Assembly (NCBI GenBank): GCA_024975835.1
Contig: GCA_024975835.1_4840.3
Strand: one strand, 5' to 3'
DNA length: 18,253 nt
Source: a phage
Part shown: positions 7,846 through 18,253 of the stretch, piece by piece
Position numbering within the stretch: position 1 is the first letter of the stretch
Layout of the letters: each line of letters begins with the position of its first letter
Notes under the pieces: generated by a model
What the model saw: the letters and a program-made list of their open reading frames with translations, nothing else
Told to the model about the DNA's origin: nothing
The model's database searches: none
Translations under genes and position numbers: made by a program

Positions 7846-8685
7846 ATGTCATATATTCTTCATGTGGATTCTGGAACCAAAATTGAAATTGAAGGCAAAG
7901 ACGTTGCTGCTATTCAGGCTGAAATCAAAGAAGCAGGTCTGATCATCGGAAACGTTACCCTGCGCCGTATGGTTGAAGGTGTTCTTCAGGCTGCCAACGG
8001 CTTCGAACTGATTGAAGGTCTGAGCGCCGAAGAGAAGGAAGAAACTCAGCAGGCTCTGGCGCAAGCCCAAGAGCAAGCCCAAGCTGAAGTATCCCTGAAA
8101 GTCGCTGAAACCGTTGATGCTGAAGCACCGATCTCTGCCGATGCATGTGAAGCCCCAGTGTCCGACGCCCCGGTAGACGCGGTTAAAGATGCAGTCAACG
8201 CGGCGCTGGAAGAAGGCAATCAGCCGTCCGACGCGAAAATCGGTTCCTTAGCGTCTTCTATGCTGAAAGAAGCATCGAAGGGTAAGACCCTGACCCCGCA
8301 GGCAGCGCTGGTAGAGCGTAAACGCCGTCACACCAAACGTGAGGAAATGGTTGACTTGGCTCGCGCTTCTAATCACGGTCCGGTCTTGGCGGCGATTGAA
8401 GCTGGTGTTGTCCCCGGCGTGTTCCTGAGCTACGTGAACCCAGACATGCGTTGGTTCCAGTTCCCGGTCACCGAACTGGCTAACCCTGAAAACCTTCACG
8501 CCCGCACCAATACGTATGTCGACGTTGCGCCTATCGTTTCCGGTGGCTGGGGCTTCAGTCTGTACGTGAACGGCAAGTCCTTCACCAAACGTCAGAAGAT
8601 CAAAGAGTCTGATGCTGAGTCTCTGGTTAAGGCGATCAATGAATGGCTTCCACAGGCTCTGGCTGAAGCGAAAGCTGCTGCGTAA
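7846..8685 (+). CDS. Hypothetical early protein (279 aa): N-terminal domain, acidic Ala/Glu/Gln-rich low-complexity linker, C-terminal domain
   Basis: ORF bracketed by the promoter at 7749-7777 and the terminator at 8716-8746; appears GC-richer with host-like codon choice by eye; no recognised family. Confidence 0.65.
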   Translation: MSYILHVDSGTKIEIEGKDVAAIQAEIKEAGLIIGNVTLRRMVEGVLQAANGFELIEGLSAEEKEETQQALAQAQEQAQAEVSLKVAETVDAEAPISADACEAPVSDAPVDAVKDAVNAALEEGNQPSDAKIGSLASSMLKEASKGKTLTPQAALVERKRRHTKREEMVDLARASNHGPVLAAIEAGVVPGVFLSYVNPDMRWFQFPVTELANPENLHARTNTYVDVAPIVSGGWGFSLYVNGKSFTKRQKIKESDAESLVKAINEWLPQALAEAKAAA

Positions 8686-8715
8686 TTTAAGTTCAGAAAC
8701 TGTTCAAAAGATGAA

Positions 8716-8746
8716 GGGGCTGCTATAATAGCAGCTCCTTTTGTTT
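8716..8746 (+). terminator. Rho-independent terminator: stem GGGGCTGCTA / TAGCAGCTCC (one G-U pair), loop TAA, then TTTTGTTT; a TATAAT hexamer (8724-8729) is embedded in the hairpin
   Basis: Read directly; lies between the stop of gene 7846..8685 and ATG 8760. Confidence 0.6.
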
Positions 8747-8759
8747 ATTGGAGCAGTTT

Positions 8760-9419
8760 ATGTCCTACTCCCTGAAGGGGTTGATGAAGCGCCCCGTCCA
8801 CACATTCTTTAAACCACCCGTCGTAAAGGGGATCTACCCAGCACGAGGGCAAATCTACTACGTCAAAGGCTCCAATGGTAGCGGTAAATCCACTGTGCCG
8901 TCTCAGCTGGCGGAGAGGGATCCTCAGGCGTATGTCGTGACCCATAATGGCAAGGTCATGCTGACTGTCTGTCCTTCGTTCAACGTGGTCTGTATCGGTA
9001 AATATGACAAGTCGAAGTCCAAGGGGGTTGATTCCCTGAAGGACACTGAGCAGATGTTGTTCGCGTTGTCTATTGCTGACCAACCAGAATACTTGAAATA
9101 TGATGTGATTTTCGAAGGTATCATTCCATCCACATTATTGAGTTCTTGGATCCCCCGTCTGACACGCCCACCACGTGAATTGGTTGTGCTCTTTATGGAC
9201 ACTCCTCTTGAAACGTGTATCACCCGCGTTAAATCACGTAACGGCGGTGTGGACTTCAATGAAAGTCTGGTGGTCGAAAAGTGGGAAAGAGTTCATGACC
9301 ATCGTCAACGACATAAAGACTTGTTCCCTACGGTAGCTGCGGGTATGATGAAGTCTCACGGCCTAACGGTAGACCAGGCTGTGATGGCATTCCTCTGTCG
9401 TGATTTTGGGAGTATCTGA
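8760..9419 (+). CDS. P-loop kinase-like protein (Walker A GSNGSGKST), 219 aa; candidate nucleotide or DNA kinase
   Basis: Walker A motif in the first 50 residues; start moved from the track's TTG 8748 to ATG 8760 (GGAG 7 nt upstream); stop overlaps the next start as TGATG. Confidence 0.6.
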   Translation: MSYSLKGLMKRPVHTFFKPPVVKGIYPARGQIYYVKGSNGSGKSTVPSQLAERDPQAYVVTHNGKVMLTVCPSFNVVCIGKYDKSKSKGVDSLKDTEQMLFALSIADQPEYLKYDVIFEGIIPSTLLSSWIPRLTRPPRELVVLFMDTPLETCITRVKSRNGGVDFNESLVVEKWERVHDHRQRHKDLFPTVAAGMMKSHGLTVDQAVMAFLCRDFGSI

Positions 9420-10465
9420 TGGAAATCAAAGCAATTAACAACAATGACATGCTGAAGCAGGCTGTCTTGGCTATCCGTGAATTCGGGATCGAATCTGATC
9501 CTGGTAATGCTGAAATCAATACTGATAGCACCCGCTTCCTTGATGGTGTGACTATCACTGTTTCCGATATTCGTGACCGCTGGCTCTCCGTTGAAGGTCG
9601 CAACTCATCGGCTATCGCTGCCATCGGCGAGACCTTCTGGGTGTTGTCAGGCCGCAACGACATAAAGTTCCTGTCACGCGTATTGCCTCGCGCTGCTAAC
9701 TTTTCGGATGATGGGGTAACATGGCGAGCTGCTTATGGTCCGCGTCTGTACGCCCATGGCCAGCTGGATAGCGTTATCAACCGCCTGCGCAAGAACCCAA
9801 ACACTCGTCAGGCGTACCTCACCATCTATGACCCGGCTCTAGATTCGGATGCTGGTCTGGCGAAGTTCAGCGAGAGCGGCGAAGCAAAGACTAAGGACAT
9901 GGTGTGTAACCTGGCTCTGTTGTTCGCCATCGTTGAAGGTCGTCTGAACCTGACGGTCATCAATCGCTCACAGGATGTTCTGTGGGGGATGAGTTCAATC
10001 AACTTCATTGAGTTCTCTATTCTTCAGGAAGTGATTGCTCGGGTGTTAGATGTTGATGTCGGTCAGTACAAGCTATTCTCTAACAATCTTCATTACTACA
10101 ACAATGAAGTCAGCCAGAAGCAGCTGGGCAAGATCACGAAGGACACCAAAGTAGAAGCTGGGTTCATCAACTCCATGATTCACTTCACGAACGTGACCAA
10201 CCAGAACCATATCCGCAATCTGTTCACTGGTGTGCTTCATCACTGTGATATCGGTAGCCCGTGGGAAACTGTGGTTGCTCACCTGAAGGAATACGATGCG
10301 GATCGCGGCCTGATTGTACAGATGGCGTACTGCCTGCACTGCAAATTGAATAACAAGCTCATTAACCTGGACCTGATTCAGGATCATGGCTTGAACACCG
10401 CGCTTACCCATTCTCCGGTTGACCGCAAGATCGTTGATCCTAAGTTCCTGGAAGGTGTAGTATGA
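9419..10465 (+). CDS. Thymidylate-synthase-superfamily enzyme, probable deoxypyrimidine-monophosphate hydroxymethylase (T4 gp42-like), 348 aa with a long C-terminal extension
   Basis: TS-fold motifs in the right order: GETFWVLSGRNDIKFL (TS ELLWFLKG...), GQLDSVINRLRKNPNTRQAYLTIYDP (TS DQL..VI..LK.DP.SRR.I.SAWNP), nucleophile Cys in DMVCNLALLF, and LTVINRSQDVLWG (TS YQRSaDvfLG; T4 gp42 MRSNDVVFG). Confidence 0.75.
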   Translation: MEIKAINNNDMLKQAVLAIREFGIESDPGNAEINTDSTRFLDGVTITVSDIRDRWLSVEGRNSSAIAAIGETFWVLSGRNDIKFLSRVLPRAANFSDDGVTWRAAYGPRLYAHGQLDSVINRLRKNPNTRQAYLTIYDPALDSDAGLAKFSESGEAKTKDMVCNLALLFAIVEGRLNLTVINRSQDVLWGMSSINFIEFSILQEVIARVLDVDVGQYKLFSNNLHYYNNEVSQKQLGKITKDTKVEAGFINSMIHFTNVTNQNHIRNLFTGVLHHCDIGSPWETVVAHLKEYDADRGLIVQMAYCLHCKLNNKLINLDLIQDHGLNTALTHSPVDRKIVDPKFLEGVV

Positions 10466-11031
10466 TGTACCCAAATCTTGAATTCTTTACGGGGCGCAAA
10501 CGCTCCGGTAAGGACTTCTGTTTGGAGTCCCTCATCAGCTATCACCAACTACAGGGTGATATGGACATCCAGCGCCTTTCGTTCTCAGATGAACTGCGCC
10601 GTGTGGCCAACTACATCTACCCATGGCTGCCAGCGGAGGTAGAGGATGCCGTGAAGGACGTTCCTTACGTGCACCCTGATAACCCCAAGGGCTTAACTCC
10701 ACGGCAGATCTGGCTTCATCTAGGCAGCGATACGGGCTTGCGTTACGTACAACCCGATCTGTTCCTGGCATTCTTCAAGCGCTTCCAGCTTCCTCTGGTA
10801 GAGCAGAACCCCCACGTCCATTATATCGTGAGCGATCTGCGTACCCCTCAGGAATATGAATGGGCGCTGAGTACGAAATGTCCTATCACCCGTATTTCAA
10901 AGGCCGACCGTGCTGGTATCATAGAGGACGATATAGAGGCTTTCATTGACCAAATGAAAGTGGACTACGAATTCCTCAATCCATTTGATGGTTGGGAACC
11001 GTTCGTTAAATTCTACGGAGAACGTAAATGA
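10462..11031 (+). CDS. Deoxynucleoside-monophosphate kinase, T4 gp1-like (189 aa)
   Basis: FFTGRKRSGKDFCLESL matches T4 gp1 FLSGVKRSGKDTTADFI (the G-x-x-RSGKD loop); YIVSDLRTPQEYEWA matches gp1 YIVPDTRQDHEMDAA; start overlaps the upstream stop as ATGA. Confidence 0.65.
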   Translation: MMYPNLEFFTGRKRSGKDFCLESLISYHQLQGDMDIQRLSFSDELRRVANYIYPWLPAEVEDAVKDVPYVHPDNPKGLTPRQIWLHLGSDTGLRYVQPDLFLAFFKRFQLPLVEQNPHVHYIVSDLRTPQEYEWALSTKCPITRISKADRAGIIEDDIEAFIDQMKVDYEFLNPFDGWEPFVKFYGERK

Positions 11032-11582
11032 TCACAGCAGGGCATATCAAAAGCCTGCTCGAACTCCAAAAGGCCACCAACGTGGCCTACTTTGGGGAAG
11101 AGTGGAAGAATGTATGGAGTCAGAACGCAGTCATCAACTCCATCTATCGTGAGTGGGCAGAGTTCCTTGATGAAACCACCCGTGACTGGAAGGTCTATGG
11201 CAACGACATCGGGTTTGACCATACGAACGCAGTTTATGAACTGGTGGACGTGGTACACTTCATGTTGTGCTTCATCCTTGTGGACCGCACCAAAGGTGAG
11301 ATCGAAGAAGAATTTGAAGTCCTCAGTAATCGCGAATTCACCCCATCTACTTTGGGTGTTGTAGGGCATCGCAATGTTACGTACCGCCTTGGGCAATTCA
11401 TGAACGATCCTTGCGTTGAGACTCTCATGTTCTTCCTGTCGTCTGCGTGTTCTTATATGGAGATCGACATTGAGACTTACATGCTGGCGCACAAACGCAA
11501 GAACGATCGCAATCGTCTGCGTGCTTCTGGTGGCGCGGATTACGACAAGTCCGCAGAAACCCCTCTGACCCTGGAGTTCTAA
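11028..11582 (+). CDS. All-alpha dNTP pyrophosphatase, T4 gp56 (dCTPase/dUTPase)-like, MazG/dUTPase_2 superfamily (184 aa)
   Basis: AVYELVDVVHFMLCFILVD matches T4 gp56 KFELVDIFHFVLNMFVGLG; start overlaps the upstream stop as ATGA. Confidence 0.55.
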   Translation: MITAGHIKSLLELQKATNVAYFGEEWKNVWSQNAVINSIYREWAEFLDETTRDWKVYGNDIGFDHTNAVYELVDVVHFMLCFILVDRTKGEIEEEFEVLSNREFTPSTLGVVGHRNVTYRLGQFMNDPCVETLMFFLSSACSYMEIDIETYMLAHKRKNDRNRLRASGGADYDKSAETPLTLEF

Positions 11583-12124
11583 TGTTTACAGTCGTCGTTT
11601 CATACCATGCGGAGAACGCTGCTCAGGCATCCTCCAAATTCGCCGAGCACATCATCGGCGGCGGCCATAATGTATTCCTTACTGAATACAACAGGCCTGT
11701 TAAACCGGGCGACGGTCTTTCGGCGACTGTTACGCATAAGATCGCCAGCGAGCAACCAGAGTCTCTGTTCAGAATGATCGAAGAGTATGCCAGTGGTGGT
11801 ATCAAGATACCAGATGAACTGGTAGACGTCTATTTTGAAGGCTCGATCTATTACATCCACGCTATGCCAAAGGATATAACCATTGAACAGATGATGTATA
11901 TCCTGAATATAGCACTGAACACTGCGTGCATCAACCGCACGAACTACAACAATCTGCGCAATATGTACCTAACCGACCGGCATAATGACGCATCGTCACT
12001 TGTTGAGATAATGTCCCTGAAGAGCATCCAAGAGGCGGTTAACATTTTGTCCCAGAAGGTTATGGGTGTAGACTTACTAACGACGATTAACAACAAAGAG
12101 GAAGTGAAATGGCCAGTTCATTAA
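11582..12124 (+). CDS. Hypothetical protein (180 aa) in the position that beta-glucosyltransferase occupies in T4, between the gene-42-like gene and uvsX
   Basis: ORF coupled to its neighbours (TAATG at the start, 16-nt overlap with uvsX); no motif recognised; too short for a GT-B glycosyltransferase. Confidence 0.55.
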   Translation: MFTVVVSYHAENAAQASSKFAEHIIGGGHNVFLTEYNRPVKPGDGLSATVTHKIASEQPESLFRMIEEYASGGIKIPDELVDVYFEGSIYYIHAMPKDITIEQMMYILNIALNTACINRTNYNNLRNMYLTDRHNDASSLVEIMSLKSIQEAVNILSQKVMGVDLLTTINNKEEVKWPVH

Positions 12125-13194
12125 TGGACCGCATGCTGAAGGTTGCTAAGAAACACGATGACCAGGCTTCAGTGCTGTCCCAATCAGACGCTCTGGAACC
12201 GTCTATCATCTGTTCTACTGGTATTCCCCTGATCGACATCGCATGGTCTGGGCGTATTGACGGCGGCCTGATCTCCGGTATCAAGATGATGGTGGGTGAT
12301 TCCCGTACCTTCAAAACGATGTTCGGTCTGGTGGACGTCAAGGCGTACATGGACAAGTTCCCTGATGCTATCTGCGTCTTTGCGGACTCAGAAAAGGGTG
12401 CCAACGCTGATTACTGGACCTCTATGGGCATTGACATGGACCGCGTCCTGTACGTACCGATCGACAACGTTGAACAGACCAAGATCCGATTGCTACAGAT
12501 CCTACAGGAAGTCAAGAAAGGCGACCATGTTATAATCTTCATCGACTCTATCAGCCAACTTCCCTCCACCAAGGAAGTTGAAGATGCGATCAAAGGGAAC
12601 GACACTCAAGACATGACCCGCGCCCGTGCCCTCAACAGCTTCTGGCGTGTCATGACTCCCGAAATCAACAGCAAAAATCTCGTGTGTGTTTGGATCAACT
12701 CCTATTACGATGAGATCGGCAACCAATATGCCGAGCCTAACATCAAAGGCGGCAAACAGGGCTTCTTATCCTCCAACTTGATCTGGTTTATCACCCGTTC
12801 TCAGGTGAAGGAAGACAAAGATCTGCTGGGCTGGAACTTCAACATAAGCATCATGAAAGGCCGCCATGTCAAAGAAAAAGCCAAGCTCCCTGTCACGGTA
12901 CTGTACAACGGTGGTATTGATCGCTGGAGCGGCCTGCTTGAGATCGCTCGTGCTCTGGGTTATGTTGATATGCCGTCTTCCGGCTGGTATGTGCGTACAG
13001 CCAAGGGCGGTTTCGATCCTGAGAAGGAAAAGAAATATCAGAAGCGTCAGATGGGTGATGATTTCTGGTATCCGCTGCTGGAGAATGTCAACTTCGCCGA
13101 TGACGTGAAGAAAATGTTCGGTGTTTCTAACGGTACTGTTATGCCTGCTAACATGCTGGAGCAAATGGACCATGTTATTAACACAAGCGAATAA
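12109..13194 (+). CDS. uvsX: UvsX RecA-like recombinase (361 aa)
   Basis: Collinear with T4 UvsX: MVGDSRTFKTMFGLV vs LAGPSKSFKSNFGL, ICVFADSE vs VCLFYDSE, VIIFIDSI vs VVVFIDSL, DMTRARAL vs DMTRAKTM, YNGGIDRWSGLLEIA vs FDGGIDPYSGLLDMA. Confidence 0.9.
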   Translation: MASSLMDRMLKVAKKHDDQASVLSQSDALEPSIICSTGIPLIDIAWSGRIDGGLISGIKMMVGDSRTFKTMFGLVDVKAYMDKFPDAICVFADSEKGANADYWTSMGIDMDRVLYVPIDNVEQTKIRLLQILQEVKKGDHVIIFIDSISQLPSTKEVEDAIKGNDTQDMTRARALNSFWRVMTPEINSKNLVCVWINSYYDEIGNQYAEPNIKGGKQGFLSSNLIWFITRSQVKEDKDLLGWNFNISIMKGRHVKEKAKLPVTVLYNGGIDRWSGLLEIARALGYVDMPSSGWYVRTAKGGFDPEKEKKYQKRQMGDDFWYPLLENVNFADDVKKMFGVSNGTVMPANMLEQMDHVINTSE

Positions 13195-13501
13195 TAGTGG
13201 AGGGGGAGGAGACTCCCCCAATAACTACACAATCATCGACCCTGGTGCTGATCAGCTGGCGATCATCAAGATCACTTCTGGCAAATTCCGTGGTGTTCAA
13301 TTCCGGTTCGGCAAGGTGGCTATTAACGAAGTGGACGGCGAACCCCGCCTGTCTTTCGTGACTGATATATTGAAGAAACCATTGCGTCTGATGTTTGTGA
13401 ATTTGAAAGAAAATGACTTGTTCACTGAGGTATCAGGGGATATCCTTGTAGACCTCATGCAGCGTAATGCTCAGGAATATAATAAATTTTTGGTGGGGTA
13501 G
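13172..13501 (+). CDS. Hypothetical protein (about 109 aa) in the T4 gene 40 position between uvsX and gene 41; start uncertain
   Basis: ORF in track begins at GTG 13121 inside uvsX; the first in-frame ATG is 13172 (GGAG 11 nt upstream); assignment to gene 40 is positional only. Confidence 0.4.
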   Translation: MLLTQANNSGGGGDSPNNYTIIDPGADQLAIIKITSGKFRGVQFRFGKVAINEVDGEPRLSFVTDILKKPLRLMFVNLKENDLFTEVSGDILVDLMQRNAQEYNKFLVG

Positions 13502-13507
13502 TGGCCA

Positions 13508-14932
13508 ATGTTACTCGAATCTGTCGTGCTTTCACAGTTGATTTACAATGAAGATTACCAAAGAAAGATCCTGCCGTACCTGAAAGCCGATTATTTTGAC
13601 AACGAAGGCGAAAAGGTCATCTTTGGCCTGATTGACAGTTATACCTCAGAGTACAATGCCCGCCCGTCTGTCGAAGCACTATCTATCATTCTTGAACGGA
13701 CAAAGTTGAACGAATATGTGTTTGACCAGGCAGTGACTGCCCTGGAGAACATCAACGACAACACCTTCAATGAAGAGTGGCTGGCGAAGGAAACCGAGGC
13801 TTGGGCGCGGCAAAAAGCCGTACACAACGCAATCAAGACCGCCGTCAACATCTACGGTGACGAGAAGCGCAAGGACGAGATGAACAACATCCCGACCATG
13901 TTGCAGGAAGCCCTGGCTATCCGGTTTGATTCATACCTCGGTCACATCTATTGGGAGATGGCGGCAGAGCAGTATGACCACATGAACTCCAACGAGGCCA
14001 AGATCCCGTTCGCAGTTGAGATCTTCAATAAGGCGACACGTGGTGGCGTTGGTAAGAAGACACTGAACATCGTAACAGGTGCGATCAACGCAGGTAAGAC
14101 CACAACGCTGATTGACCTGACCGCAGGGTACTCGGAGCAGGGGCTGAACGTCTTTGTCTTCACCCTTGAAGTGGCCGAGAACGTCTGGCGACACCGTCTT
14201 GATGCCCGTATCATGCGTCGCGACTTTGAGTCTTTAGAGAAACTCACAAGGCACGAGTATATTGCAACGATAGAGAAGCTCCGCAGTCGCCAAGATGGTG
14301 CGCCCAAGGGTGATATCGTCATCAAGGAATATCCTTCTGGTACTGGACACACGGGTTTATTCCGCCGCGATATCCTTGAGTACATCCAGGCAACAGGTCG
14401 TGCTCCTGATGTTATCGTTATTGACTATCTTGGCGAAGCTGCTTCCTCGCGCCTGCCTTCCCACCTGATGCAGAACACGAACGTCTATTACACGTCTGTG
14501 GCTCGTGAGTTTCGTGCGCTGGGATTTGAGTTTGATGTCCCTGTATGGACTGGTATGCAGTTCAATCGTGAGAATCAGAATAGCACTGATGGTGGAATCA
14601 GTGATTTGGCAGATGCTATCGGTATTCCGAAGGTGGCCGACTTCATCATGGCATTCTATGCTCCTGACGAACTGGCGGCGGTCAAGAAAGCCCGAGCCTC
14701 AATACTCAAGAACCGTTATGCCAACAAGCAGAAGCTGAAATCATTCCTGTTTGGTATGGACCAAGACAAACAGATCCTGTTTGACCTGGACTGGAATGAA
14801 GTTAAGAAGGACCTGACCGAGGCTGAGGCCAAATATGTCGAAAACGTACACATCAAACATGACCTCAACAAGTCCGGGGCTGCTGCCAGCGATGAGCAGA
14901 AAGCCCAAACGGTCAATAATTGGAAATTCTAG
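13508..14932 (+). CDS. 41: Replicative DNA helicase, T4 gp41 (DnaB-like) family (474 aa)
   Basis: Walker A GAINAGKTTTL (T4 GVNVGKSLGL); SQLIYNEDYQRKILPYLKADYF vs T4 SHLIFDQAYFSKVWPYMDSEYF; IVIDYLG vs IIIVDYLG; IPKVADFIMA vs LPATADFMLA; both end in KF. Confidence 0.9.
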   Translation: MLLESVVLSQLIYNEDYQRKILPYLKADYFDNEGEKVIFGLIDSYTSEYNARPSVEALSIILERTKLNEYVFDQAVTALENINDNTFNEEWLAKETEAWARQKAVHNAIKTAVNIYGDEKRKDEMNNIPTMLQEALAIRFDSYLGHIYWEMAAEQYDHMNSNEAKIPFAVEIFNKATRGGVGKKTLNIVTGAINAGKTTTLIDLTAGYSEQGLNVFVFTLEVAENVWRHRLDARIMRRDFESLEKLTRHEYIATIEKLRSRQDGAPKGDIVIKEYPSGTGHTGLFRRDILEYIQATGRAPDVIVIDYLGEAASSRLPSHLMQNTNVYYTSVAREFRALGFEFDVPVWTGMQFNRENQNSTDGGISDLADAIGIPKVADFIMAFYAPDELAAVKKARASILKNRYANKQKLKSFLFGMDQDKQILFDLDWNEVKKDLTEAEAKYVENVHIKHDLNKSGAAASDEQKAQTVNNWKF

Positions 14933-17508: not shown

Positions 17509-17589
17509 CATGCGCAAGTATTTCAACTGGTTGTTCTGTATACCGTCGCTGAGTGCTGAGATTCGTTCCCTGATAATATATTGAAGTCT

Positions 17590-17622
17590 CCAGGGTTATA
17601 ATAGCAGCACATATAACCCTGG
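17590..17622 (+). promoter_or_regulatory. Hairpin with 11-bp perfect stem CCAGGGTTATA / TATAACCCTGG and 11-nt loop; contains TATAAT (17597-17602) and its 3' arm overlaps the ligase ribosome-binding site
   Basis: Read directly; no T-tract follows, so it is not a terminator; shares the 12-mer TATAATAGCAGC with the element at 8724-8735. Confidence 0.4.
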
Positions 17623-17631
17623 AGGCACCAC

Positions 17632-18253
17632 ATGATCCCTATCCTTGAAATAGTCCACCGACTTCGCGAAACCAAAGGCAGCAATGCGAAGAAAGCCGTG
17701 CTGACCGAAGCATTCAAGAACAACCCAGACTTGGCAGACTTCCTGCAGTATGTCTATGACCCAATGACGTCGTTCTATCGGACTGAGTTGAAGCTCAGCG
17801 CGTATCCTCGCATGCTCGTCCGTGAGAAGACTGATGACATCAGCGAAGTCTATGACGTCCTCGACCAGATGGCGCAGCGTCTTGTCGGTGGCCAAAAGGC
17901 TGATGCCCTGTTGGCCTCTGTCGCCCTGAAGATGGATCCCCAATACCACGAACTCATTCAGATGATCCTAGACCGTGATATCAAGGCGGGTATCGCTGAG
18001 AAGGGCATCAACGCTGCATTCAACGCCGCCGGAGGCACTGGACGCCTGATCAACATTCTTCCGTATCATCGTTATGACAACATGACGATTGACCTGCTGA
18101 AGAAGATGGACTTCAAGCGCGGCGTCTACAGCCAGCTGAAGTCAGACGGTATGTTCGCCAACATCATATGTCGGTACAATAAAGAGCCTGAGATTCGCTC
18201 TCGCTCCGGTTCCCTTATCGCAGGTGGTTCGGTTGATAACCTTTCACTGGTGT
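17632..18253 (+). CDS. 30: ATP-dependent DNA ligase, T4 gp30-like; 5' partial, continues beyond the window
   Basis: Hand translation has no stop to the window edge; contains the adenylation motif QLKSDG (T4 ligase QLKADG with active-site Lys); GGAGG 6 nt upstream of the ATG. Confidence 0.8.
   Translation, partial: MIPILEIVHRLRETKGSNAKKAVLTEAFKNNPDLADFLQYVYDPMTSFYRTELKLSAYPRMLVREKTDDISEVYDVLDQMAQRLVGGQKADALLASVALKMDPQYHELIQMILDRDIKAGIAEKGINAAFNAAGGTGRLINILPYHRYDNMTIDLLKKMDFKRGVYSQLKSDGMFANIICRYNKEPEIRSRSGSLIAGGSVDNLSLV

Follow-up and report, generated by a model that had tools for sequence, protein, structure and literature searches.

A conserved Ackermannviridae gene block that probably starts thymidine hypermodification in an Agtrevirus-like phage

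The five consecutive genes that precede uvsX in this phage very probably form the conserved Ackermannviridae block with which thymidine hypermodification starts. The whole 18,253-nucleotide stretch analysed here, referred to as the window, shares 98% identity with published genomes and comes from an Agtrevirus-like phage of the Ackermannviridae, as found by sequence comparison. Its nearest relative is fGh-Ecl02 (98% identity to the window), followed by Shigella phage Ag3 (92%) and the Dickeya LIMEstone-like phages (about 89%). Ag3, LIMEstone and SKML-39 appear among the phages encoding a 5-hydroxymethyl-dU DNA kinase (5-HMUDK) in Table 1 of Lee 2018. With about 49% GC, the window belongs to this Ag3/LIMEstone-like lineage and differs in subfamily lineage from ViI, a Kuttervirus. 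Some Agtrevirus papers still give the DNA of these phages as plain HMdU. What has been observed is which genes these are, that they are orthologous to and syntenic with those of ViI, and that the nearest relative has the remaining pathway genes. The block is real and the original prediction, which had read it as a base-substitution module, is correct in outline; the pathway itself is already known, and the post-replicative chemistry of ViI, including the DNA kinase activity of gp67, is established in the literature (PMC5889632, PMC8989533).

Table 1. Features of the gene block and its flanks (positions within the window)
Gene	Feature	Position	Strand	Basis
	Terminator-like hairpin followed by a T-run, intergenic, conserved	8713..8741	+	Terminator scan, RNA fold
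1	5-HMUDK, ortholog of ViI gp67	8760..9419	+	PF18748, ViI orthology
2	TS-fold dUMP hydroxymethylase, ortholog of ViI gp66, predicted to make 5-hmdUMP	9419..10465	+	PF00303, phrog_3676
3	T4 gp1-type dNMP kinase, ortholog of ViI gp65, predicted to phosphorylate 5-hmdUMP	10462..11031	+	phrog_139
4	All-alpha dNTP pyrophosphatase (dimeric-dUTPase/gp56-type), ortholog of ViI gp63	11028..11582	+	PF08761, phrog_173
5	PF24021 'phage ACT-like' protein, 180 aa, ortholog of ViI gp62	11582..12124	+	PF24021
	UvsX recombinase	12109..13194	+	Pfam RecA and T4_UVSX_C domains
	Small conserved ORF where T4 has gene 40	13172..13501	+	phrog_3998; annotated in fGh-Ecl02 and ViI
	gp41-type DnaB-like replicative helicase	13508..14932	+	DnaB_C; phrog_19 (E 7e-101)

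The raw sequence confirms that the five plus-strand genes (8760-12124) are chained by overlapping stop and start codons and continue into uvsX, the small ORF and the helicase gene, as had been claimed. Genes 1 and 2 meet at TGATG and genes 4 and 5 at TAATG, each with an overlap of 1 nt, while the two junctions in between are both ATGA with an overlap of 4 nt. The uvsX start, preceded by GAGGAAG, overlaps the end of gene 5 by 16 nt; an alternative ATG at 12124 would form another TAATG. The small ORF shares its first 23 nt with uvsX, and a gap of 6 nt precedes the helicase gene. The program-made ORF list begins gene 1 at a TTG (8748), whereas annotations of relatives use the ATG at 8760, which has GGAG at 8750-8753. 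The pattern 1/4/4/1/16/23 is repeated in ViI and also in the metagenomic relative L016, whose gene 5 is just 42% identical, which implies that the tight packing is conserved and not due to chance. The five genes are probably co-translated. The clustering is not peculiar to this phage; it is a family-wide, published feature, and 5-HMUDK adjoins the dU hydroxymethyltransferase in Fig. 2 of Lee 2018.

Overlapping junctions are frequent across the genome of this phage. With the fGh-Ecl02 annotation transferred onto the window, overlaps occur at 13 of the 27 same-strand plus junctions, the longest series being the six in succession of this chain.

Upstream of the chain lies a hairpin with a stem of 13 pairs in the terminator scan and a folding energy of -26.9 kcal/mol (z -5.6). 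The hairpin and its flanks are near-invariant in the window, fGh-Ecl02 and ViI (mean column identity of 91% in a 112-column alignment), the mismatches being concentrated at the outer ends, and the ViI hairpin itself is near-identical. A perfect extended -10 (TGCTATAAT) is found at 8721-8729, within the hairpin, 19 nt ahead of the opening gene of the chain. The element may act as a terminator for 7846-8685, as a promoter for the chain, or as both.

Gene 1 matches PF18748 over profile positions 1-195 of 196 (E 1.6e-108; 361 bits against a gathering threshold of 27), and is 88% identical over its full length to ViI gp67 (Vi01_061c = YP_004327432), which occupies the matching genomic position. The Walker A motif GSNGSGKST (residues 38-46) is kept in the ViI protein. 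ViI gp67 has been assayed and transfers phosphate to 5-hmdU DNA, yielding the phosphorylated 5-hmdU nucleotide (PMC8989533). The product of gene 1 is predicted to phosphorylate 5-hmdU residues in replicated phage DNA. The original prediction of an extra P-loop kinase holds as to the fold, and its substrate would be 5-hmdU in DNA, not nucleotides (PF18748; gp67, PMC8989533).

Gene 2 matches PF00303 (E 1e-15; 57.9 bits against a threshold of 24.3) and shares with E. coli ThyA, T4 gp42 and the SPO1-like and PaMx11 enzymes the invariant residues Cys163, Arg183, Ser184, Asp186, His225 and Tyr227. The catalytic Cys, the dUMP-binding Arg/Ser/Asp, the His and the Tyr make up the active-site set of the TS fold. 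Asn195 aligns with an Asn in ThyA and an Asp in T4 gp42, and is likewise Asn in the SPO1-like and PaMx11 enzymes. We take this to be the specificity position (ThyA Asn177/T4 gp42 Asp179), with Asn specifying uracil and Asp cytosine; the substrate is thus probably dUMP. The best PHROG is phrog_3676 (E 2e-183), followed by phrog_5131, the best family for the SPO1-like and PaMx11 enzymes. The protein is 77% identical to ViI gp66, and its closest relatives outside the family come from PaMx11 (36%, TS-like protein) and SPO1-like phages (34%), both of them 5-hmdU phages.

The original prediction named an ordinary thymidylate synthase as the outcome that would speak against it; by sequence and profile, gene 2 groups with the hydroxymethylases instead. 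Its best PDB match is the CMP hydroxymethylase MilA (1.4e-17) against 3.4e-9 for the best true thymidylate synthase, and with seven NCBIfam ThyA equivalog models its scores do not exceed 58 bits, the cut-offs being 108-427 (top score 57.8 bits, cut-off 327). These values bear on a housekeeping reading, in which a thymidylate synthase, a thymidylate/dNMP kinase and a dUTPase merely raise dTTP and no base is replaced. The GenBank labels of the relatives ('thymidylate synthase', 'thymidylate kinase', 'dUTP diphosphatase') favour such a reading. It is already contradicted, and has virtually no likelihood left, as the TS homolog falls below the equivalog cut-offs and is nearer to hydroxymethylases than to any true thymidylate synthase, the annotated 'thymidylate kinase' is the PF18748 protein, and the DNA chemistry of ViI has been measured (PMC5889632).

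The other two enzymes of the block are also upheld by profile searches as a gp1-like dNMP kinase and a gp56-like dNTP pyrophosphatase. Gene 3 and T4 gp1 match the same region of phrog_139 (E 1.2e-47 and 1.8e-65, respectively) and have the loop GxKRSGKD in common (GRKRSGKD and GVKRSGKD), while BLASTP aligns them over 24 residues only (E 0.003). Searches of Pfam, NCBIfam and PDB gave no match for gene 3, which is 90% identical to ViI gp65; its substrate is probably 5-hmdUMP. Gene 4 matches PF08761 dUTPase_2 (36.5 bits; threshold 22.9), and in phrog_173 it scores E 5.4e-40 beside 5.8e-39 for T4 gp56. The metal-binding ExxE/ExxD motifs of the C. jejuni dUTPase 1w2y are matched in the alignment by E42/E45 and E71/D74 of gene 4. 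Homologs occur in 349 phage records, two Delftia phages among them, and ViI gp63 is 61% identical. Gene 4 is predicted to strip dTTP/dUTP from the pool. However, a second, MazG-like pyrophosphatase adjoins aGPT-Pplase1 in ViI and fGh-Ecl02 and is an alternative candidate, so the dTTP remover could be either enzyme.

In the proposed pathway, the TS-fold enzyme would convert dUMP to 5-hmdUMP before replication, the gp1-type kinase would raise it to the diphosphate and the host NDP kinase to 5-hmdUTP. The gp56-type pyrophosphatase would meanwhile break down dTTP/dUTP, so that with this supply and breakdown the phage polymerase would insert 5-hmdU where T belongs. After replication, the gene 1 kinase would turn 5-hmdU in the polymer into 5-PmdU, from which the aGPT-Pplase2 serine:DNA transferase would form O-serinyl-T. 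At a subset of sites a PLP decarboxylase would then give 5-(2-aminoethoxy)methyl-dU (5-NeOmdU), the other sites finishing as thymine. The modified base would shield the DNA against restriction enzymes. For the conversion of 5-hmdU to thymine, the available text of Lee et al. 2018 and 2021 names no enzyme.

Transferase and decarboxylase would both be encoded outside the 18-kb window, which holds neither gene, so the final base is deduced from relatives. The original prediction of a 'complete' module therefore went too far: four more genes, for the transferase, the decarboxylase, another DNA kinase and aGPT-Pplase1, lie at other places in these genomes. In ViI the pathway set comprises gp67, gp66, gp65, gp63 and gp62, with gp160, gp226, gp243 and gp247 encoded away from the block (Lee et al. 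2018 PNAS; Lee et al. 2021 NAR). All four genes lying away from the block in ViI are present in fGh-Ecl02, with identities of 90% to gp247 (the aGPT-Pplase2 serine:DNA transferase), 92% to gp226 (the PLP decarboxylase), 79% to gp160 and 47% to gp243. A putative 5'(3')-deoxyribonucleotidase, also encoded elsewhere in these genomes, could be the dTMPase listed for hmU phages in PMC8989533.

The absence of a transferase and a decarboxylase gene from the window, and the Agtrevirus papers giving 'HMdU' substitution alone, would both suit a phage that halts at 5-hydroxymethyluracil, with a plain T to hmU replacement as in SPO1 and another role for the P-loop protein. This is most improbable, given the full-length PF18748 match of gene 1 and its 88% identity to an assayed 5-hmdU DNA kinase, the retention of both missing enzymes at 90-92% identity to ViI in a relative 98% identical to the window, and the absence of 5-hmdU from ViI-like virions (PMC8989533).

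The extra kinase had been taken as a hint of a hypermodified base, and orthology to ViI, whose DNA chemistry is measured, bears this out. About 40% of T is replaced by 5-(2-aminoethoxy)methyl-dU in ViI, and likewise about 40% in CBA120 and Vibrio phage 1.255.O (PMC5889632, PMC8989533); a 301-Da nucleoside replacing part of T was shown in virion DNA of ViI, CBA120, CBA6 and 1.255.O (PMC5889632). The predicted replacement of a canonical pyrimidine thus stands for thymine, by analogy with ViI, and the replacement would be partial (about 40% in ViI). By the same analogy, 5-NeOmdU would be the product expected in this phage. A different hypermodified thymidine, such as one built from a different amino acid, is very unlikely: the specificity-bearing enzymes of the nearest relative are 90% (gp247) and 92% (gp226) identical to those of ViI, and the 301-Da nucleoside also occurs in 1.255.O, a far more distant Vibrio phage of the Ackermannviridae (PMC5889632). 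Some weight on its side comes from the clusters of M6, PaMx11 and PhiW-14, where products vary with the transferase and tailoring enzymes, from the second kinase of fGh-Ecl02, which forms part of a longer ORF and shares only 47% identity with ViI gp243, and from the hypermodification literature, whose available text reports no DNA analysis for Aglimvirinae.

Gene 5 keeps its slot between the pyrophosphatase gene and uvsX strictly in all lineages examined, overlapping both neighbours, and is 55% identical to ViI gp62. It is ACT/ferredoxin-like, with the beta-alpha-beta-beta-alpha-beta fold; neither sequence membership of a classical ACT family nor a recognisable ligand site was found, and the search for a characterised relative returned none. 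It is rather unlikely, though conceivable, that gene 5 is a working part of the pathway, either as a subunit that tunes the 5-hmdUTP supply by sensing a small molecule or binding a partner, or as a factor helping to choose between 5-NeOmdU and thymine as the fate of 5-hmdU; a role as a UvsX accessory would be the alternative. Downstream, the uvsX product is 35% identical to T4 UvsX (E 2e-82), and the small ORF has no detectable relation to T4 gp40 (BLASTP E 0.46).

Among known systems, ViI is the closest match, with the same five genes, order, stop/start overlaps and flanks (uvsX, small ORF, helicase). Protein identities for genes 1-5 are 88, 77, 90, 61 and 55%, genes 4 and 5 being far more diverged than genes 1-3. 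The Bacillus hmU phages SPO1, SP8 and phi-e follow the same logic of replacing dTTP by 5-hmdUTP, with a pre-replicative pathway of dUMP hydroxymethylase, dNMP kinase and dTTPase/dUTPase (PMC8989533). SPO1-type phages retain 5-hmdU in the virion, whereas the DNA kinase of the window would open further chemistry; SPO1 has served as the non-hypermodifying reference for genes unique to hypermodifying phages, including 5-HMUDK (PMC5889632).

Similarly, in T4 as in the window, the genes for a hydroxymethylase acting on a pyrimidine and for a modifier acting on DNA directly precede the series uvsX, small gene, helicase gene. The modifier is a glucosyltransferase in T4 and a kinase in the window, and T4 modifies cytosine, with Asp at the position where the window has Asn. 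The PHROGs of genes 3 and 4, 139 and 173, also contain T4 gp1 and gp56, the pairwise likeness being at the motif level only. The T4 order is 42, b-gt, segA, uvsX, 40, 41, with gene 56 about 9 kb off and gene 1 at 74.6 kb, in agreement with the original statement that genes 42, 1 and 56 are scattered and a glucosyltransferase lies between 42 and uvsX. In the Pseudomonas phages M6 and PaMx11, 5-HMUDK is clustered with the dU hydroxymethylase as in the window. Their operons also hold the transferase together with the tailoring enzymes (PLP/rSAM or FAD/acetyltransferase), which the window block lacks, and their products (5-NedU; N-alpha-GlyT/5-NmdU) are unlike that of ViI. No annotation in the PaMx11 stretch examined names a gp1-type kinase or a dUTPase-type pyrophosphatase, and no M6/PaMx11-group Pseudomonas phages are among the matches listed for the gene 3 and gene 4 families.

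The use of the finding lies in annotation, and the science of the pathway gains nothing new. In GenBank, RefSeq and PHROGs, gene 1 is often mislabelled as 'terminase small subunit' or 'thymidylate kinase' and gene 2 as 'thymidylate synthase'. Current gene labels thereby hide a hypermodification pathway that touches restriction digestion, sequencing and the therapeutic choice of Ackermannviridae phages.

Over its whole length the window shares 98% identity with Enterobacter phage fGh-Ecl02, with the E. coli phages ZQ1, AV101 and A221 and with others; Shigella phage Ag3 is 92% identical to it. The Dickeya LIMEstone-like phages show ~89% identity, measured on the gene block itself, and weaker matches reach some 280 Ackermannviridae records. 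These identities make it an Agtrevirus-like member of the heavily sequenced family Ackermannviridae.

The raw sequence holds the five-gene plus-strand chain exactly as originally described, with TGATG, ATGA, ATGA and TAATG junctions, and the ORF positions confirm that it leads into uvsX, the gene 40 position and the helicase. With the fGh-Ecl02 annotation transferred to the window, overlaps are frequent, at 13 of the 27 same-strand junctions, and the longest overlap run comprises six consecutive junctions from gene 1 on. The 1/4/4/1/16/23 overlap pattern recurs in Salmonella phage ViI and in a relative from a metagenome with a fifth gene of just 42% identity. The comparison made with T4 was also right, as genes 42, b-gt, segA, uvsX, 40 and 41 are contiguous there, gene 56 lies ~9 kb off and T4 gene 1 is at 74.6 kb. 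The small ORF in the gene 40 position shows no similarity to T4 gp40 (BLASTP E 0.46); the ORF and its overlap with uvsX are kept across the family.

Coordinates and junctions of the gene chain and flanking features in the window
Feature	Position	Strand	Remark
Hairpin, 13-bp stem and T-run	8713-8741	+	19 nt before gene 1 start codon
Gene 1, P-loop kinase	8760-9419	+	TGATG, 1-nt overlap with gene 2
Gene 2, TS-fold hydroxymethylase	9419-10465	+	ATGA, 4-nt overlap with gene 3
Gene 3, gp1-type	10462-11031	+	ATGA, 4-nt overlap with gene 4
Gene 4, gp56-type	11028-11582	+	TAATG, 1-nt overlap with gene 5
Gene 5, PF24021	11582-12124	+	16-nt overlap with uvsX (start 12109, behind GAGGAAG)
109-aa ORF, T4 gene 40 position	13172-13501	+	phrog_3998; 23-nt overlap with uvsX end
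DnaB-like helicase			starts 6 nt past the 109-aa ORF

The hairpin before gene 1 has a predicted folding energy of -26.9 kcal/mol (z -5.6) and holds a perfect extended -10, TGCTATAAT, spotted by eye. Hairpin and flanks hardly vary among the window, fGh-Ecl02 and ViI (91% mean column identity in a 112-column alignment), with the mismatches clustered at the outer ends. In the predicted fold of 8700-8759, positions 8700-8705 are base-paired to the GGAG Shine-Dalgarno region. A sigma-70 scan found no full promoter ahead of the chain, and an Rfam scan of the whole window found nothing. The hairpin may terminate the upstream gene, promote the chain, or both. A second hairpin at 17590-17631 (CCAGGGTTATA...TATAACCCTGG) holds a TATAAT and sits immediately before the Shine-Dalgarno sequence and ATG of the DNA ligase, which starts at 17632 and continues past the window end; TATAAT within a hairpin before genes looks like a recurring architecture. 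Compared with window ~17510-17630, fGh-Ecl02 has ~590 bp extra just upstream of the ligase (17509-18220 in L001; L-numbers denote stretches of related phage genomes with their own coordinates), with an additional small ORF that has a ligase-like annotation.

Gene 1 matches PF18748, the family of the 5-hmdU DNA kinases, over the full length (E 1.6e-108) and is 88% identical to ViI Vi01_061c (YP_004327432), which is gp67. Purified gp67 is described as phosphorylating 5-hmdU in DNA (PMC8989533). Family membership and identity to this assayed protein argue that gene 1 encodes a post-replication DNA kinase and not a nucleotide kinase; its identity as a kinase stands, and DNA takes the place of a nucleotide as the predicted substrate. 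The labels 'terminase small subunit' (PHROGs phrog_800, RefSeq) and 'thymidylate kinase' (several GenBank records) are wrong for this PF18748 gene. The same mislabelling is found on ViI Vi01_061c (L002 13204-13866), where the true small terminase is another gene, Vi01_162c.

The other enzyme calls in the chain, a TS-fold hydroxymethylase, a gp1-like dNMP kinase and a gp56-like dNTP pyrophosphatase, are upheld by profile searches and motifs. The fold of gene 2 is that of TS (PF00303), but it is rejected as an ordinary thymidylate synthase, scoring no higher than 58 bits where the ThyA equivalog cut-offs lie at 108-427. Among solved structures it comes closest to the CMP hydroxymethylase MilA (1.4e-17; best TS 3.4e-9), and its second family after its own PHROG is phrog_5131, to which the SPO1-like and PaMx11 enzymes match best. 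Gene 2 keeps the catalytic Cys163, Arg183/Ser184/Asp186 and His225/Tyr227 when aligned to ThyA of E. coli, gp42 of T4 and the SPO1-like and PaMx11 enzymes. The base-specificity position is Asn195, like ThyA, whereas T4 dCMP hydroxymethylase has Asp; this residue suggests dUMP as the predicted substrate.

Gene 3 shares phrog_139 with T4 gp1 and carries the gp1-type GxKRSGKD loop. Likewise, gene 4 lies above the Pfam dUTPase_2 cut-off, shares phrog_173 with T4 gp56, and keeps the acidic residues of the ExxE/ExxD motifs, in register with C. jejuni dUTPase. Direct BLASTP matches each to its T4 counterpart at motif level only, and the proposed kinship rests on the common PHROG profiles. Members of the gene 4 family occur in two Delftia phage records. 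PhiW-14 is the known hypermodifying Delftia phage. A second, MazG-like pyrophosphatase (287 aa) adjoins aGPT-Pplase1 (ViI gp160) both in ViI (gp161, L006 28726-29589) and in fGh-Ecl02 (L005 20627-21499), and is an alternative candidate for dTTP/dUTP exclusion.

ViI-like phages, as outlined in PMC5889632 and PMC8989533, first make DNA in which 5-hmdU replaces T. The 5-hmdU is supplied by dUMP hydroxymethylase, dNMP kinase and dTTPase/dTMPase functions (PMC8989533). On the polymer, 5-HMUDK turns 5-hmdU into 5-PmdU, gp247 (aGPT-Pplase2) attaches L-serine via its hydroxyl, and decarboxylation by the PLP enzyme gp226 yields 5-(2-aminoethoxy)methyl-dU at ~40% of T, with the other sites converted to thymine (PMC5889632, PMC8989533). 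The proposed replacement of a canonical pyrimidine therefore holds in outline, the base being thymine and the replacement partial (~40% in the literature on ViI-like phages). The module had been supposed complete but is not, since four later genes are encoded elsewhere in ViI and fGh-Ecl02. In ViI they are scattered, with gp226, gp243 (a second kinase) and gp247 near the DNA polymerase and gp160 apart, and none of the four falls within the 18-kb window. All four are present in fGh-Ecl02 (gp160 79%, gp226 92%, gp243 47% and gp247 90% identity to ViI). Hence, the block covers the pre-replicative supply and, of the post-replicative steps, the first. In fGh-Ecl02 the homolog of gp243, a second 5-hmdU DNA kinase, makes up the last ~295 residues of an ORF of 532 aa that carries the annotation 'homing endonuclease' (L004 8964-10562), which may reflect a fusion or an insertion.

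Gene 5 matches PF24021, 'phage ACT-like' (E 1.7e-79), and has no credible match in the PDB sequence search or NCBIfam. Searching 1.84 billion representatives with a profile yielded one narrow family of 19 proteins, ~15 of them full length. Four more distant relatives, read in their contigs, all lie within Ackermannviridae-type blocks, and in every context read (ViI and these four contigs) the gene sits between the pyrophosphatase and uvsX. AlphaFold, with an 18-sequence alignment, predicts beta-alpha-beta-beta-alpha-beta for residues 1-110 (pLDDT ~90), followed by a helix of 35 residues and two more helices of lower certainty. The few invariant residues are E67, R119, N154, V160, G162, W177 and H180. 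The W177 codon TGG contributes the TG of the uvsX start codon ATG that overlaps it (AAATGG; 12106-12124), so conservation of the C-terminus (EEVKWPVH) may partly reflect dual-coding and ribosome-binding-site constraint.

The Vibrio Ackermannviridae K414 and 1.255.O keep the chain of kinase, hydroxymethylase, dNMP kinase, pyrophosphatase, a fifth protein and uvsX, and 1.255.O is listed with the same 301-Da nucleoside (PMC5889632). Their fifth proteins are 196-204 aa long (K414, L012 6174-6788; 1.255.O, L013 4519-5109), and comparison with gene 5 does not show homology (BLASTP E 0.54; hmmsearch 2 bits; hhalign 0.07% and 0.23%). The alignments, although weak, run co-linearly, and Foldseek with gene 5 gives weak matches to similar-size proteins of Vibrio phages Kuja and VAP7 (E 3e-4 and 3e-3), so these proteins may be divergent orthologs. 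Within the initial 50 kb of the Kuja genome, the sole 209-aa gene does not adjoin uvsX. Kuja (Kujavirus, Ackermannviridae) has a 'thyA' of 284 aa, an ordinary length for a TS (L021 39138-39992), and the hydroxymethylase chain was not found in its first 50 kb; Kuja may thus be without the hypermodification pathway.

Lee et al. (2018, PMC5889632) already include Ag3, LIMEstone and SKML-39 among the 5-HMUDK phages and place 5-HMUDK next to the dU hydroxymethyltransferase, and a 2024 review describes the modification genes as conserved family-wide. The whole family shares this clustering, which is published and is not peculiar to the window. The observation is confirmed and the pathway was already known; the interest that remains concerns the PF24021 protein, which we infer is probably accessory or regulatory rather than a core base-chemistry enzyme.
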